From Candidatus Hermodarchaeota archaeon (lineage in GTDB: Archaea; Asgardarchaeota; Lokiarchaeia; Sigyniarchaeales; SOKP01), in assembly GCA_048885525.1 (NCBI GenBank), contig JBHLLP010000047.1, positions 1 through 27,774 on the forward strand: a DNA stretch of 27,774 bases, in the 5' to 3' direction. The notes under the pieces are model-generated. The model did no database searches, had not been told where the DNA came from, and saw only the letters and a list, made by a program, of their open reading frames with translations. The first letter of the stretch is position 1; the number at the start of each line of letters is the position of its first letter. A program made the position numbers and the translations under genes. This document shows positions 7,301-13,906 of the stretch, piece after piece.

Positions 7301-7726
7301 ATGGGTTTTGATAATGAATTTGATGATGAATTTGATGAACAAGAATTTGATGAAGACTTAGAAGATTTAGATGAAGAAATTGAAGAAAAGCCGGAAGAGG
7401 ATAAAGAAGAACCTTTTGAAAAGATTCCTGAGGAAGAAGTTGAAGTAAAAACTCCTACTACTAAAGTTGTTTCTAGAGGTAAGAAACTTTCAGTATATTT
7501 TATGTCTACTATTGGTCCAGGTGAGAAAAAACAAAAACTGACTGTTAACGATGGAAATCTTGTAGGTGATATCAAAGAAACTGTAGCAAATTTATTTGGT
7601 TTAGTTCCTGCTGACTTTCATTTATCTTGTGGGGGTGTAACAATGGATGAAACTAATCCTTTAAGCGATTATAATATTTCTGACGGAGATGATATACTTT
7701 TAATTCCAGCTAGTATTGCTGGTTAA
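7301..7726 (+). CDS. Ubiquitin-like protein 1 with long acidic N-terminal extension, C-terminal AG
   Basis: The last 81 aa show a beta-grasp pattern (KLTV..D.K...LSDYNI.DGD.ILLIP) including the ubiquitin hexapeptide LSDYNI. Ends IPASIAG-stop. The N-tail is about 60 aa and D/E-rich. Confidence 0.88.
   Translation: MGFDNEFDDEFDEQEFDEDLEDLDEEIEEKPEEDKEEPFEKIPEEEVEVKTPTTKVVSRGKKLSVYFMSTIGPGEKKQKLTVNDGNLVGDIKETVANLFGLVPADFHLSCGGVTMDETNPLSDYNISDGDDILLIPASIAG
7307..7357 (+). repeat. Tandem TTTGAT-based repeats encoding FDNE-FDDE-FDEQE-FDED
   Basis: tttgataatgaa tttgatgatgaa tttgatgaacaagaa tttgatgaagac. Confidence 0.7.
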
Positions 7727-7775: not shown

Positions 7776-8570
7776 TTAATTTTTATCTTTTCTTGAGGGA
7801 ATTAGAGCAATTTCATCGTCATCATCTATGCTGTAGTCTTTTATTTGTGAGGTTTCATCTAATAATATCCCTCCGGATGATAAGAGAAAAACTTGATCTT
7901 CATAATCAAATAGTAGTGCAATTTTCTCTTTAACAGCTCTTACTGATTCATCTATATCTATTATAATAATTTTTGTTTTCTCACCAGGTTCCAATAATGA
8001 TCGTATATATACGCGAATTTGATCTTCAATTTTTATAGAGCTCCTTGGTGACATATAAGGTATCACATCATTAATATTATTCCTATTTTCTAACATATTT
8101 TCGATTAGCTCTTTTCTTTCTTTTGGATCATAGTATATCATTTCTCTGATAAACAATATTTTATCCATTTTTGATAGATCCAGTAGGTTAATTTTATTTA
8201 ATTCTTCTTTACTTAAAATTGAAAAAATATATTTATCTATGATTGGCATATCCTTATAGGATTTATTTGATTCAACATATTCATCTAAAGAAGGCATGGC
8301 ATCAATATAATCTTCAACAATATTGAAAGATTTCTTTTGTATTAACTTCTGTTTAGTAGTATATTTTTTTTCTTTTAACATCTTGACTGAACTAGTTTTA
8401 GATTGTATTACGGTATAAATTGTACTAGTGGATAATACAGCAACACTACCTATAGTTAGAGTAAATAATAAGAGATTATTTTCTATATGAAATAGGAAAA
8501 ATAAAATATAGAGCAAAATACAAACAGTATAAAGAACGACAACACTTAATATTCTATAATTTTTTCTCAT
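7776..8570 (-). CDS. Membrane-anchored protein (2 N-terminal TM helices) with C-terminal ubiquitin-like domain
   Basis: Hydrophobic segments at about aa 7-29 and 33-55. The last ~80 aa share PGEK, LSSGG, DE, DY.I.D.D.I.LIP with the free Ubls but end SRKDKN (no Gly). Confidence 0.82.
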   Translation of the reverse strand: MRKNYRILSVVVLYTVCILLYILFFLFHIENNLLLFTLTIGSVAVLSTSTIYTVIQSKTSSVKMLKEKKYTTKQKLIQKKSFNIVEDYIDAMPSLDEYVESNKSYKDMPIIDKYIFSILSKEELNKINLLDLSKMDKILFIREMIYYDPKERKELIENMLENRNNINDVIPYMSPRSSIKIEDQIRVYIRSLLEPGEKTKIIIIDIDESVRAVKEKIALLFDYEDQVFLLSSGGILLDETSQIKDYSIDDDDEIALIPSRKDKN

Positions 8571-8654: not shown

Positions 8655-9326
8655 TCATTCACCTTGAATCAATTTTCTTATATTAGTATATTTTTTTTGA
8701 TCTAATTTGTATATATGTCTATTTTTTTCTTTTTCAATTTTTATTAACTTTAGATCTGCTAAAATATCTATATATTTTTTTATAGTAGTATGATTCTTTT
8801 TCAGTCCATTTGCTATCTCTGTGATTTTTAATGCTTTATTTTCTATTTTCATAAACTCTATAATATTTTGAACAATTTTTTTTTTTAAATAATAGTGAAA
8901 CGGGTCAAGTGTTGGATCTGAATCGAATTTGAAGAAATATCTATGGTTATTGATTTGTTTTGATCTGACAAATTGAAATTTTTCTAAGCATGATAGATGC
9001 CATAAAGCTTGATTACTGCCAATTTTTAGAACCTTCATTATTTTATTAATATTTGATGGATTCTTTTTAATAAAATTGAATATCTCATTTCTTTTCGGAT
9101 GTTCTATTATATTATTTTTCATTAATTTTGTTCCAGGGATAATAACGCGTCTTTTAATGAAATCCTTCAGAATTAACTCTATTCTATTCTCATTTATATT
9201 AGGATTGTATCGCACTCTATTGCTTATATAGGAGATAATTTCTTTAATTGAAAAGAAGGTCTTCTTTGTTAAATACTCTCTTACTAATTTAAGAACAACA
9301 GATTCTGCATCATCAAAAGAACTCAT
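8655..9326 (-). CDS. Multi-winged-helix (ArsR/MarR-like) DNA-binding protein
   Basis: Repeated wHTH patterns: RNEIFNFIKKNP...ALWHLSCLEKFQFV and KITEIANGLKKNHTTIKKYIDILADLKLI. A probable third wHTH lies at the N-terminus. Confidence 0.8.
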   Translation of the reverse strand: MSSFDDAESVVLKLVREYLTKKTFFSIKEIISYISNRVRYNPNINENRIELILKDFIKRRVIIPGTKLMKNNIIEHPKRNEIFNFIKKNPSNINKIMKVLKIGSNQALWHLSCLEKFQFVRSKQINNHRYFFKFDSDPTLDPFHYYLKKKIVQNIIEFMKIENKALKITEIANGLKKNHTTIKKYIDILADLKLIKIEKEKNRHIYKLDQKKYTNIRKLIQGE

Positions 9327-9590: not shown

Positions 9591-9923
9591 ATGAGTTTTG
9601 ATGAATTTGATGAAGATTTAGGAGGAAATGAACCAGTAAAATCTAAAACTCCAGCAGGTAAAACTCCGACTGGAGGAAAGAAATTAACTTTATATTTCAT
9701 GTCTACAATTGGTCCTGGTGAAAAGAAAGAGAAGTTAACTGTGAATGACAGCAATAGAGTAAGAGATATTAAACAAACATTAGGAAATTTATATGGACTT
9801 GACCCTAATGATTTCCACCTTTCTAGTGGAGGGGTCACTATGGATGAAAATAGTGATTTAAGAGACTATGATATAAATGATGGTGACGATATTCTATTAA
9901 TTCCAGCGAGTACAGCTGGTTAG
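9591..9923 (+). CDS. Ubiquitin-like protein 2 with acidic N-terminal extension, C-terminal AG
   Basis: 61 of 81 core residues are identical to the 7301 Ubl (manual count). Ends IPASTAG-stop and lies directly upstream of E1. Confidence 0.9.
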   Translation: MSFDEFDEDLGGNEPVKSKTPAGKTPTGGKKLTLYFMSTIGPGEKKEKLTVNDSNRVRDIKQTLGNLYGLDPNDFHLSSGGVTMDENSDLRDYDINDGDDILLIPASTAG

Positions 9924-10001: not shown

Positions 10002-11261
10002 ATGGTGATAATATTGGATAAGGATTCAGATTTTTTCGCAAAAGAATTATCAGTGGAAGAAAGAGCCCTGTATGACCGCCAATTTCGTCTGGAAGGGTGG
10101 TCTCAGAAATTGGTAAAGAATTCTAGAGTTCTAGTAGTTGGTGTGGGAGGTTTAGGTTGTGAAATTGCCAAAAACTTGGCTATGCTTGGTGTTGGTCAGC
10201 TTGATCTTATCGATTTAGACATTATTGAGCATTCTAATTTAAATCGTCAAGTTCTTTTTACAGGTGCAAAGCTAGGAGAACCTAAGGCAATTGTTGCTGC
10301 TCGTAAGCTAAAAGAAATTAATCCTAATATTATTGTTAAGGGATACCACACCTCTCTAGAACGATTGAACCCAGCACTTTACCAAGCTGCGGATGTTGTT
10401 ATCGGAGGCCTTGATTCTATGAACGCACGTCTGAATTTAAATGCACAATGTATAAGATTTAAAAAGCCATTAGTAGATGGAGGTGTATCTGGTTATCACG
10501 GTCATGTATATACAGTTTTTCCTTATAAAAATGCGTGTTATGAATGCAATCCATTACCTATAGGTGAGTCTGATGAAATGGCTGCTTGTACAGTAGTAGG
10601 AATCCCTCGAAAAAGGATTCATTGTGTTTTTAAAGGAGATATGGTCTTTAGAGAAAAATTTGATAGAGATCCAAATCCAAAAGATGTAAATGATATAGAA
10701 TTCATTCAAAAGGTTGCAAATGAATTAGTAATTGAGCATAATTTCTTACCCGAATATACTCAGGACGATATTGTAAAAATCATTGATAGACATGATCCTG
10801 GTATAATAACTATAAATGCCGTTATTTCTGCTTTACAATCACATGAAGCAACCAAAATCCTTCATTGGAAAAAAGGACATAAAGGATTAGGTGAACCTAT
10901 TAAAAGTTATGTGATTTATAATGCAATTACAATGAAGTTTTATCATATTGAAAAAAAAAGAAATCCAGAATGTCCTCAGTGTAGTAAAAACGTTCGACGA
11001 GTATCTATAAAATTGAGATCTGAATCGCCTTGCATAAATATAATAAAGATATTAGAGAAGAATGGATATAAATTAGATAGAGATTCTGAACCAATTTTGA
11101 CTTTACAAGACTTTAATGATATTATAATGGTCGATTTACAGAAGAATCCAATTGAAAATGGTTTAAGAAATTACGAATTTGTAACAGTTGCAGGGTTTAA
11201 AGGGGGAGAAATTTTTGTAACCTTAAAATTAAAACAAAATTTGAATCAAAAAAGATTTTAA
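10002..11261 (+). CDS. Ubiquitin-activating enzyme E1 (ThiF/MoeB family, UBA2/UBA3-like)
   Basis: LYDRQ, GVGGLG, DLDIIEHSNLNRQ, Zn motifs CYEC and CPQC, catalytic loop AACTVVGIPRKRIHC (Cys196), and a C-terminal ~80 aa probable ubiquitin-fold domain. Confidence 0.92.
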   Translation: MVIILDKDSDFFAKELSVEERALYDRQFRLEGWSQKLVKNSRVLVVGVGGLGCEIAKNLAMLGVGQLDLIDLDIIEHSNLNRQVLFTGAKLGEPKAIVAARKLKEINPNIIVKGYHTSLERLNPALYQAADVVIGGLDSMNARLNLNAQCIRFKKPLVDGGVSGYHGHVYTVFPYKNACYECNPLPIGESDEMAACTVVGIPRKRIHCVFKGDMVFREKFDRDPNPKDVNDIEFIQKVANELVIEHNFLPEYTQDDIVKIIDRHDPGIITINAVISALQSHEATKILHWKKGHKGLGEPIKSYVIYNAITMKFYHIEKKRNPECPQCSKNVRRVSIKLRSESPCINIIKILEKNGYKLDRDSEPILTLQDFNDIIMVDLQKNPIENGLRNYEFVTVAGFKGGEIFVTLKLKQNLNQKRF

Positions 11262-11340: not shown

Positions 11341-11868
11341 ATGAGTATAAGAAGTAGTCGTATTTCCCGCGATGTTGCGGGATTAAAGAAAATGCAGAAA
11401 GAGGGTAATATTGTTCAACTACAACCATTTAATCCTAAAAGGAAGAGTATTAATCATTTAGCAATTTCATTTAGAGGCCCCAAAGGTACTGCTTATGCAG
11501 GAGGTCTTTTTAGATTAGAAATGAAATTCCCTGCTCAATATCCTAGACAACCCCCTTTTGTTAGATTACATACACCAATTTGGCATCCAAATTTTTGGCC
11601 AAAACCATCTGAATATAAAGGCCAAAGAAATATATGTTTAGCATTAGTAGATCCTTCGTTAGTTGGTAAAAAAGGGGGCTGGAGTCCCTCAAAAACAGCA
11701 GTTACAGTTGTCCAGGCAATCATTGCAATGTTAAATACACATGGTAAATATGTAAATCCTACCGATGTTTTTAATAAAAAAGCAGCGGTTGAAATGATGA
11801 AAAATCCTAAATTTTTCGAGAAAAAAGTAAAAAATCTTGTTAAGAAGTATGCTAATAAAAAATGGTGA
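11341..11868 (+). CDS. Ubiquitin-conjugating enzyme E2 (UBC fold)
   Basis: GPKGTAYAGGLF, FPAQYPRQPP, IWHPN...NICL (Cys99), WSP and N..AA motifs. Confidence 0.95.
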   Translation: MSIRSSRISRDVAGLKKMQKEGNIVQLQPFNPKRKSINHLAISFRGPKGTAYAGGLFRLEMKFPAQYPRQPPFVRLHTPIWHPNFWPKPSEYKGQRNICLALVDPSLVGKKGGWSPSKTAVTVVQAIIAMLNTHGKYVNPTDVFNKKAAVEMMKNPKFFEKKVKNLVKKYANKKW

Positions 11869-12692
11869 TATTTTCAATGGAAGATAAGGAATCAGCTAAT
11901 AATTCAATCAAAGATACAATAAAGAGGAAGATAAAAGAAAAAATAAAACAAGAATTGTTAGATGAAATCTGTGAAGAGCTTGCGTTAGAAGAAGATGAAT
12001 TAACAGAGGAAATCACTTCAATACTTACAAAAAAGTCCTCTAGTAAGTCAATAATAAAACTTACAAAGATACCTTCAGAAGAAATTGTAGAAAAAAAAGA
12101 GGTTGAAATTCAAAAAGAAGAAAAGATTCAAAAGGAAATTTATATTTCGGTAAAAGCAATCCTTAAAATAGCGAGTCATGCACTTAAATATGCCAATTCT
12201 CAGATTCAAAGAGAAAAATGGGTTGAGGTTATAGGGCTTCTTGCCGGAAAAATAGAAAAAAGTAATGGTATCTTACATATTGAAGATGCTTATCCGATGG
12301 GACATGGTACAGCTGTTTATGCTGAAATTAAAGACTATAAAAACTATGCTAGAGCTTTCCAAGATATTAAAAAACAAAAATTATTTATATGTGGGTGGTA
12401 TCATTCTCACCCAAGCTACGGATGTTTCTTAAGTTCAGAAGATATGGGCACACAAGCGAGATATCAAAAACTTTGGGACAAATCTGTGGCTCTTGTTATC
12501 GATCCTTACCAAATCGATGGTAAATCCACAGGATTTGAAATATATAAAGCGGATCTTAGAAGTAAAACATGGTATCCTTTAGTATATGGAATTAAAGGAT
12601 CACTAGATGTTAAGATGCTTCCAGAAGTTTTAAAATTCATGAATCCTATAATTGAAGGGAGAGCTGTTTATCTCGAATATGATGAAGATTGA
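11862..12692 (+). CDS. JAMM/MPN+ metallo-isopeptidase (Rpn11/CSN5-like)
   Basis: ISVKAILKIASHA, EVIGLL, GWYHSHPSYGCFLSSED (E...HxH-x7-S-x2-D) and ALVIDP. Start overlaps the E2 stop; an alternative ATG occurs five codons downstream. Confidence 0.93.
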   Translation: MVIFSMEDKESANNSIKDTIKRKIKEKIKQELLDEICEELALEEDELTEEITSILTKKSSSKSIIKLTKIPSEEIVEKKEVEIQKEEKIQKEIYISVKAILKIASHALKYANSQIQREKWVEVIGLLAGKIEKSNGILHIEDAYPMGHGTAVYAEIKDYKNYARAFQDIKKQKLFICGWYHSHPSYGCFLSSEDMGTQARYQKLWDKSVALVIDPYQIDGKSTGFEIYKADLRSKTWYPLVYGIKGSLDVKMLPEVLKFMNPIIEGRAVYLEYDED

Positions 12693-12721: not shown

Positions 12722-13906
12722 ATGCCTAAATATAAAGCTGTCGCATTAACAATGACAATATTTTCATTGATAGGCATAATACACAGTATAATTCTAGATT
12801 CTTTTAATGTATTTGTGAGCTGGCTATTAATAGGAATATGGTTAATTTTTTCTCTCAAAGTTTTAAAAAATATTAAACAATATCGAGAATATCGGAGTCC
12901 TCATAATACAGCTTTCTTTATTATTAGTCCTGTTTTTGTGGGTATATTTTATTCAATATGGGGAAATTTTACTGGTTTGTTAGGAGAAAATCTTCTATTA
13001 AGTTCAGATGTATACTTAAGTTGGTGGAGCATTTTATTTGGATTTCCTTATGTTTTATATGGTTCGATATCTTTATTTCGTTGTTTTAAAAAATATAATG
13101 TAATCTATTTTGGAACGAAATCTGTAAATGCTAGGAAATTTGGGTATATTTTAGGATTTTCAATATTTTCTTTCATAATTGTTTATTGGATAAGTTTTTA
13201 TTCACTTATTGACTTCTATGAATCTTTATTGATACCTATTCATTTCTTAATTGATTTAAATCTTTTATTTTTGCTAATTGGTAGTTTATTAATAACAATT
13301 GTTTTTGGTTTTTTCGGAGCTCGAACCCAATTACCTCAGTTGACTAGAGATTATATAACAAGACGCACAACTAGATTGAATGATTTAATGTCGCCTAATC
13401 GACGTACAGTAAGAAATCGTAGCACAATACGATCATCTCCAACACCTTCAACTAGAACAGTATCTCGTACTTCAAGATCAGTTTCAAATTCCTCAAGATC
13501 AACACCTACTGCGCATTTACAATCAAGAAGTTCTAGAGTTAAAACAACTACTCGAACTACAAGCAGTAGTAGAACAGGAAAACCAATTAGAAGTAGTCAT
13601 AAAACCATGAAACAAATAAATTTTAAGTTATATAGACCAAAAGCAGGAAATTTATCATTAGAAGATTTTAAATGCATATTTTGCTTTAAGCTGCCCGAAA
13701 TTCCTAAGGATAATGCTAGAGGAATAATCTTATGCCCAAGTTGTAGATATCCCGCTCATGCTGATGAATTCAAAGACTGGCTTAAAAGTTCTCATCTTTG
13801 TTCAAGATGCAATGCCACTATTCCGTCAAATTATAGGAAAAATCCTAAAATTATCAGTGTAAAAAATTATATAATCATTTATAAGGGCTTATTAAGGAGT
13901 GGATAA
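12722..13906 (+). CDS. Polytopic membrane protein with C-terminal RING-variant Zn finger (putative E3 ligase)
   Basis: About six hydrophobic segments in aa 5-200, an S/T/R-rich linker, then CIFC-x16-CPSC-x4-H-x2-E-x3-W-x6-CSRC. Last gene of the E1-E2-JAMM run. Confidence 0.8.
   Translation: MPKYKAVALTMTIFSLIGIIHSIILDSFNVFVSWLLIGIWLIFSLKVLKNIKQYREYRSPHNTAFFIISPVFVGIFYSIWGNFTGLLGENLLLSSDVYLSWWSILFGFPYVLYGSISLFRCFKKYNVIYFGTKSVNARKFGYILGFSIFSFIIVYWISFYSLIDFYESLLIPIHFLIDLNLLFLLIGSLLITIVFGFFGARTQLPQLTRDYITRRTTRLNDLMSPNRRTVRNRSTIRSSPTPSTRTVSRTSRSVSNSSRSTPTAHLQSRSSRVKTTTRTTSSSRTGKPIRSSHKTMKQINFKLYRPKAGNLSLEDFKCIFCFKLPEIPKDNARGIILCPSCRYPAHADEFKDWLKSSHLCSRCNATIPSNYRKNPKIISVKNYIIIYKGLLRSG

Follow-up and report, generated by a model that had tools for sequence, protein, structure and literature searches.

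The window, that is, the whole 27,774-nucleotide stretch of contig JBHLLP010000047.1 that was analysed, has a G+C content of about 28% and carries genes whose homologues come from Asgard (Promethearchaeota, Loki-type) metagenome genomes. It contains an operon for a ubiquitin-like protein (Ubl) ending in Ala-Gly, an E1, an E2 and a JAB/MPN peptidase, whose last gene, here called TM-RING, specifies a protein with six transmembrane (TM) helices, a basic linker and a RING-like finger. The product of this gene is probably an E3 ligase of RING type, anchored in the membrane and serving the Ubl-E1-E2-JAB operon, a reading based on the RING fold, the conserved E2-contact positions, the linkage to the operon, a distribution matching that of the E2 and the cytoplasmic placement of the RING, from which we infer the E3 activity. 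All 382 TM-RING homologues are named 'hypothetical' in databases. The genes and domains concerned are as follows.

9591..9923 (+): Ubl ending in Ala-Gly, operon partner, adjoining the E1 gene in 73 loci
10002..11261 (+): E1 (ThiF), operon partner, Pfam ThiF match at E 3.8e-60
11341..11868 (+): E2 (UQ_con), operon partner, Pfam UQ_con match at E 4.2e-25
11862..12692 (+): JAB/MPN peptidase, operon partner, Pfam JAB match at E 5.5e-17, directly upstream of the TM-RING gene
12722..13906 (+): TM-RING gene, from the list of open reading frames, 394 aa with six TM helices, basic linker and RING-like finger, last gene of the operon
12728..13312 (+): predicted six-helix TM bundle, residues 3-197, N-terminus and C-terminus inside; AlphaFold2 (AF2) model with a predicted local distance difference test score (pLDDT) of 93.1, and positive-inside count
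13328..13636 (+): basic Arg/Ser/Thr/Pro-rich linker, probably disordered, residues ~203-305, with 24 K/R vs 2 D/E
13637..13903 (+): predicted RING/U-box-fold domain, residues 306-394, flanking helices included; AF2 model with pLDDT 92.7, fold searches and profile match to RNF24
13673..13810 (+): core finger C318-x2-C321-x16-C338-x2-C341-x4-H346-x2-E349-x3-W353-x6-C360-x2-C363, invariant columns in 49 members

The TM-RING gene is separated from the JAB gene by 29 nt, with a Shine-Dalgarno-like GGTGA about 10 nt upstream of its start, and residues M1, K3 and K5 of its product are conserved among relatives. Because the next gene downstream, mptA, converges on it, TM-RING is the last gene of the operon. 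Promoter and terminator scans were uninformative, the models being of bacterial type and the DNA AT-rich and archaeal.

Modelled by AF2 from an alignment of 76 relatives, residues 1-225 gave a predicted template modelling score of 0.85 and presented six long hydrophobic helices (residues 3-25, 28-56, 64-80, 101-123, 137-162 and 179-197), in agreement with the roughly six TM segments claimed by an earlier interpretation made from the letters alone (the sequence-only reading). The model also places a beta-hairpin (127-136) in the loop between TM4 and TM5, and TM6 is followed by a short helix (209-223). Lys/Arg residues numbered two at the N-terminus, four in loop 2-3, five in loop 4-5 and five after TM6, while loops 1-2, 3-4 and 5-6 held none and contained six Asp/Glu. 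This distribution follows the positive-inside rule very clearly, indicating that both termini are cytoplasmic; by the same charge count the RING is placed in the cytoplasm, on the same side as the E1 and E2. The cytoplasmic loops of the bundle span residues 49-63 and 120-138, the second containing the beta-hairpin.

Within the Loki-type class the bundle was strikingly conserved, with 56-85% identity overall and cytoplasmic-loop motifs such as NSPHNT and CFKKYNVIYFGTKS. Across an alignment of 49 diverse family members, which are 17-61% identical to this protein, no bundle residue was invariant, the best being P109 (43/49) and F66 (41/49), and no polar bundle residue was conserved family-wide. 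A catalytic or transport motif was sought in the bundle, and with no residue invariant in these members the idea of a membrane enzyme was dropped. We read the bundle as an anchor, possibly one that binds a partner or substrate, and not as an enzyme. Foldseek of the bundle against the PDB gave no significant match (best E 1.2), and VIA-align against 48,161 chains returned background helical matches only, the best of them an unrelated helical protein whose Z of 8.0 (rmsd 8.8) falls within the helical-bundle background. An ESM Atlas search with residues 1-225 yielded no usable look-alike. The sequence-only reading had proposed Hrd1, Doa10, rhomboid and Derlin as structures for comparison; apart from an HRD1 chain at E 9, these families were not listed in the Foldseek or VIA-align results, and a likeness to them was set aside on what is absence of evidence only. 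As modelled, the bundle is a membrane fold without a solved relative.

The finger was far more constrained. The only columns invariant in the 49 members were P306, C318, C321, C338, C341, H346, E349, W353, C360 and C363, which gives the ligand pattern C-x2-C-x16-C-x2-C-x4-H-x2-E-x10-C-x2-C. Ligand position 6 was occupied by Glu349 in 49/49 members, and the seven other ligands, all Cys or His, were invariant and followed RING/C4HC3-type spacing. Judged by this alignment, the finger is a non-canonical RING, with Glu at ligand position 6 and spacing of the C4HC3 type. E349 aligned with the ligand-6 Cys of RNF24 and with the ligand-6 Cys/His of C4HC3 RING paralogues of the same genome; since these RING-like genes share the core CPxC-x4-H-x2-C/H, Glu349 represents a family-specific replacement of a Cys/His ligand. 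Position 343, the canonical place of ligand 4, was His in 13/49 members and is Tyr in this protein, so that C338 and C341 must supply the site-2 ligands.

An AF2 model of the C-terminal 99 residues (pLDDT 92.7) showed the two loops, small beta-hairpin and central helix of a RING fold, with strands at 335-337 and 344-346, the central helix at 347-356 and a C-terminal helix at 380-393. When this model was searched with Foldseek, the top 50 matches were all RING/U-box domains, as they were in a second look with VIA-align, where Z reached 7.6, and again when 48,161 representative PDB chains were searched with VIA-align in an unbiased way (Z 5.0-7.5). None of the three top 50 sets contained a PHD finger, one of the folds that the sequence-only reading had named as counting against it, an outcome in favour of a RING. 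The C-terminal module, like the two other parts described by that reading, is present at the coordinates given, with the invariant Glu at ligand position 6. Searched against the PDB, the family profile matched the RING-H2 domain of human RNF24 at E 8.7e-4. The ligands lay in register: H346 aligned with ligand 5, E349 with the Cys that is ligand 6, and W353 with the Trp of the helix. Pfam matches among the 49 members were weak and went to Prok-RING_1 in 32 (best E 1e-4), zf-RING_2 in 25 (best E 9.9e-6) and zf-RING_16 in 24, with PHD matched by three at E 0.33 or weaker. The residues by which RINGs contact an E2 were present in register with RNF24: loop-1 position 320 was hydrophobic in 48/49 members (F33/I8/V4/L3), Trp353 was found in 49/49, and loop-2 position 361, which follows the seventh ligand, was S35/P10/A4, covering 49/49.

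The genome encodes further RING-like proteins of the C4HC3 type (for instance one of 175 aa on contig C32 of genome G000, locus L086, 1150-1677), which have in common with TM-RING the core CPxC-x4-H-x2-[C/H]-x3-W...C-x2-C, ligand 6 apart. They differ from it in carrying Cys/His where TM-RING has Glu, in lying outside the Ubl operon and in their other N-terminal parts. Their fingers match zf-RING_2, three of seven above the Pfam cut-off. Some of them possess TM segments, as TM-RING does: about five in L090 (contig C61), two or three in L089 (C76) and one in L083 (C61), with finger cores such as CLICKGKV...C[PS]NC-x4-H-x2-C...CWVC. These examples indicate that membrane-anchored RING-like fingers recur in this archaeon outside the Ubl operon.

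The position of the gene was then compared across Asgard genomes. In 80 Asgard loci JAB lay directly upstream of TM-RING wherever the contig allowed, with E2, E1 and Ubl before JAB, and in all 90 loci with enough flanking sequence JAB was adjacent to TM-RING with E2 before JAB. The mptA gene and an amidohydrolase gene were likewise syntenic in most loci, a sign that inertia accounts for part of the gene order. The linkage also held in more distant classes. The order Ubl-E1-E2-JAB-TMRING was kept in families f16, f7, f28 and f3; in family f13 (loci L103, L104, L111 and L112) E2-JAB-TMRING was intact and Ubl-E1 had moved downstream, indicating that the E2-JAB-TMRING triad survives rearrangement. 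Synteny with mptA was lost in other Asgard classes.

We also scored 400 Asgard genomes for a full-length TM-RING (best E < 1e-30) and for an orthologue of the operon E2 (E <= 1e-45). The two genes showed the same distribution by family, as listed below.

Family f1: TM-RING in 117/134 genomes, operon E2 in 117/134
Family f13: TM-RING in 23/31, operon E2 in 23/31
Family f15: TM-RING in 7/12, operon E2 in 7/12, the identical seven genomes
Family f7: TM-RING in 2/2, operon E2 in 2/2
Family f17: TM-RING in 2/2, operon E2 in 2/2
Family f28: TM-RING in 2/5, operon E2 in 2/5
Families f18-f27: TM-RING in none, operon E2 in none

The few disagreements between TM-RING and E2 that were traced fell at contig edges (for example G182, G243 and G144) or in incomplete assemblies (for example G021, 78% complete, and G030, 81% complete). 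In genus g2, which belongs to the same family, TM-RING, operon E2 and operon JAB were jointly absent from four genomes that are 90-100% complete, and only a paralogous E2, 42% identical to the operon E2, was retained (G145-G149, G221; L114-L118). The entire Ubl-E1-E2-JAB-TMRING operon is thus missing from genus g2, having been lost there. This E2 paralogue is encoded in the window's own genome too, on another contig (G000:C16:59194-59640, L120). No lineage that keeps the operon E2 without the membrane RING was found among the 400 genomes, in which relatives are not independent samples. The distant member P0225, labelled Heimdallarchaeota at NCBI, maps to the operon-bearing families f15 and f13.

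Two single-contig assemblies of the same order differ in content. G135 (4.4 Mb), a complete genome, is without operon E2 and TM-RING, giving a finger-only match at E 3.5e-11, and in G138 (6.0 Mb) every gene of the operon is present (L109). Members of the order can therefore do without the system. Several close syntenic contigs (L002, L019, L030, L066, L077) bear conflicting NCBI labels, namely Thorarchaeota, Hodarchaeota, Odinarchaeota and, in one case, 'Nanopelagicaceae bacterium' (DATKTW010000176.1), and their proteins are 55-84% identical to this Loki-type gene. The conflicting labels look like mis-binning or loose naming.

Between bundle and finger lies the linker, residues ~203-305, which begins with the short helix 209-223 and holds 24 K/R, 2 D/E, 20 S, 19 T and 6 P (38% S/T). 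The sequence-only reading had recognized its basic Arg/Ser/Thr character, which held, but had put its length at about 85 aa instead of about 100. A basic linker was present in 49/49 diverse members (net charge +9 to +33, length 78-137 aa). Its S/T content ranged from 11 to 50%, so that richness in these residues is common and not universal, some lineages having an Arg/Glu-rich linker instead, and its sequence was conserved among close relatives only. The suggestion that this segment could bind acidic Ubl tails received no backing one way or the other. Over 73 loci, which are related and hence not independent points, linker charge (+11 to +28) and Ubl N-tail charge (-12 to +1) did not co-vary (Spearman -0.20, p 0.10); in this class, moreover, the Ubl next to E1 has a tail of no more than slight acidity (net about -3). 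The simplest reading is that the linker serves as a flexible, membrane-hugging tether.

The E1-adjacent Ubl ended exactly in Ala-Gly in 48/73 loci and carried residues beyond the Gly in the other 25, with endings such as AGYF, AGKA, AGLN, GRLI and GTFK; the loci tabulated include L028, L029, L040, L045, L048, L050, L052, L055 and L057. Ubls with residues after the Gly would need C-terminal processing, presumably by the operon JAB. The Ubls of this window are encoded mature. Upstream of the operon the window encodes a free second Ubl with a very acidic N-tail of 50 residues (7301-7726, + strand), a membrane-tethered Ubl domain without a terminal Gly (7776-8570, - strand) and a winged helix-turn-helix protein (8655-9326, - strand), all three of which are syntenic in most Loki-type loci.

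Taken together, these results support indirectly, through fold, E2-contact positions, operon linkage and distribution, the membrane E3 ligase proposed by the sequence-only reading; the E3 activity itself is what we infer from them. In the mechanism that we propose, the six-helix bundle anchors TM-RING in the cytoplasmic membrane and keeps its two ends on the inner side, as the model and the charge count show, and the strongly basic, probably disordered tether of about 100 residues would let the RING range over the cytoplasmic face of the membrane. The RING would bind the operon E2 charged with the Ala-Gly Ubl through the surface that is usual for RINGs, made up of hydrophobic I319/F320 of loop 1, W353 of the central helix and S361/R362 of loop 2, and would promote the passing of the Ubl either to lysine residues on proteins at or within the membrane or to its own protein. 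The neighbouring JAB may reverse the mark and, in lineages with a short tail after the Gly, mature the Ubl. To judge from the alignment, the finger is probably a cross-brace around two zinc ions, with C338/C341/C360/C363 as putative site 2 and C318/C321/H346 as putative site 1, where Glu349 may be the fourth ligand or a second-shell residue.

Several observations weigh against this reading. The fold-search Z of 5-7.6 is middling, as expected for about 75 aligned residues, so that the fold argument rests on the uniformity of the matches. This protein had no Pfam match at E <= 0.1 and reached no RING threshold, its best match being zf-RING_16 at E 0.42, and a whole-genome zf-RING_2 search did not return it. 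In RINGs the residue after the last Cys is usually an Arg/Lys/Asn 'linchpin'; here the corresponding position 364 was N19/D14/S8 and is not reliably a hydrogen-bond donor. Glu as ligand 6 is unusual for a structural zinc site, and site 1 may be altered. The operon E2 has an Arg where UbcH5 has Phe62. The genome encodes at least seven other RING-like genes that are possible E3s, and a large part of the synteny links closely related genomes, so that it does not count as independent evidence.

An unlikely alternative is that the protein is a non-catalytic membrane dock whose finger tethers E2~Ubl, Ubl conjugates or JAB, or is itself the main Ubl acceptor, without stimulating transfer. Glu at ligand 6 together with a variable linchpin could mean that activation has been lost, the membrane-tethered, non-conjugatable Ubl encoded at the locus suggests membrane scaffolding, and gene context and distribution suit a dock as well as a ligase. 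Against this, the canonical positions for E2 contact show either no variation or only conservative variation, as expected of working RINGs, the operon contains no other E3 candidate, and the small RING finger protein of Caldiarchaeum, from a like operon, is an active E3 (PMC5654768). It is much less probable that the finger is unrelated to Ubl conjugation, the basic RS-like tail and finger binding, for example, nucleic acid or another partner and the adjacency to the operon being inherited. The synteny of mptA and the amidohydrolase gene does speak for partial inertia of gene order, and Burroughs and co-workers (2011) are said to have noted that not all prokaryotic RING-like fingers are ubiquitin-related; yet the triad outlasts rearrangement in classes where mptA synteny is lost, the gene is lost jointly with operon E2 and JAB and has a distribution equal to that of the E2, and the fold matches are to RING/U-box E3 domains only.

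The likeness to Hrd1, which the sequence-only reading had put forward while cautioning that similar architecture is no proof of homology, stands as one of layout only, a polytopic protein with a cytosolic RING. That TM-RING is a true Hrd1/gp78 homologue, an ERAD-type (endoplasmic-reticulum-associated degradation) retrotranslocation channel fused to a RING and related by shared descent, seems to us very improbable. The HRD1 RING was among the Foldseek matches of the finger (rank 28, E 0.054), and among the non-significant matches of the TM domain an HRD1 chain (9og0_A, rank 49) had the highest TMq, 0.32; that TM match has an E of 9, however, and HRD1 did not enter the unbiased VIA-align top 50. 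TM-RING has six bundle helices where Hrd1 has eight, and its RING comes after the linker. Sequence and profile searches turned up no match to Hrd1, and none of the bundle's polar residues is kept family-wide. Least probable of all is a PHD-type reader finger with C4HC3 spacing that binds a peptide mark rather than an E2. The x2/x4/x2 spacing is that of PHD fingers, and there are the faint Pfam PHD matches of three members; the absence of PHD fingers from the three fold searches, the RING-like long central helix that follows ligand 6 in the model and bears Trp353, the affinity of the same-genome C4HC3 fingers for zf-RING_2 and the C4HC3 character typical of prokaryotic RINGs, according to a review (PMC11354881), all stand against it.

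Among the closest known systems are two archaeal ones. The Caldiarchaeum subterraneum operon Ub/E1/E2/srfp/Rpn11 contains srfp, a demonstrated E3 (PMC5654768), and a soluble RING E3 has been described from Helarchaeia (bioRxiv 10.1101/2023.07.25.550441). As in TM-RING, a RING finger is there encoded in one archaeal operon with a Ubl, E1, E2 and JAB/Rpn11, its E3 activity being demonstrated in those cases and presumed here. Those proteins are small and soluble, srfp being set apart by its description, with little beyond the finger, whereas TM-RING has 394 aa, six TM helices, a basic linker of about 100 aa, Glu as ligand 6 and a Ubl partner ending in Ala-Gly. The families Prok-RING_1 (PF14446) and zf-RING_2 (PF13639) are matched weakly by 32/49 and 25/49 members of the TM-RING family, but this protein matches neither at E <= 1, which is why it is annotated 'hypothetical'. 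According to Pfam remarks, bacterial Prok-RING_1 proteins have TM helices and Ubl/JAB neighbourhoods; no described member of Prok-RING_1 or zf-RING_2 with a six-TM bundle or the invariant Glu was found. Hrd1 and gp78 share with TM-RING the combination of a polytopic membrane domain and a cytosolic RING, and both they and TM-RING are expected to modify proteins at the membrane. Hrd1 differs in having eight TM helices, with no detectable TM homology to the six of TM-RING, and in its layout, which is well established: its RING-H2 comes immediately after the last TM helix, with a long cytosolic tail behind it, while the RING of TM-RING is at the extreme C-terminus (306-394), after the linker.

Studies of the ubiquitin systems of Asgard archaea have been concerned with components that are soluble (PMC5654768, PMC9192718, bioRxiv 10.1101/2023.07.25.550441), and one survey sought E3s by a single InterPro entry (PMC9192718). 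In the literature on Asgard ubiquitin operons that was searched we found no description of a polytopic RING or of this family, and no E3 assigned to the Loki-type ubiquitin gene cluster. RING E3s, archaeal operon E3s and eukaryotic membrane RING ligases are already known. What is new is that an archaeal RING protein linked to a Ubl operon is polytopic, that one of its zinc-ligand positions is an invariant Glu and that its membrane fold, as far as the model goes, is without a solved relative.

A bolder proposal, which we regard as possible if doubtful, is that the family marks integral membrane proteins, and possibly lipid head groups, with a Ubl tag for sorting that depends on the ESCRT machinery or for extraction and proteasomal removal. 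TM-RING would then either foreshadow, in a prokaryote, the membrane ubiquitylation of eukaryotes (ERAD or multivesicular body type) or have arisen independently of it, its new six-helix fold would pick substrates in the bilayer, and its RING would have a first zinc site of Cys2-His-Glu composition. With respect to the membrane-anchored ligase that we favour, TM-RING is a concrete, expressible candidate, with a soluble tail that can be combined with the operon E1, E2 and Ubl and an unusual putative Cys2-His-Glu zinc site. With a dedicated polytopic membrane RING travelling alongside E1-E2-JAB in several Asgard classes, tagging of the ubiquitin type would be located at a membrane in a prokaryote, a precondition for the ubiquitin-dependent sorting or extraction of membrane proteins.

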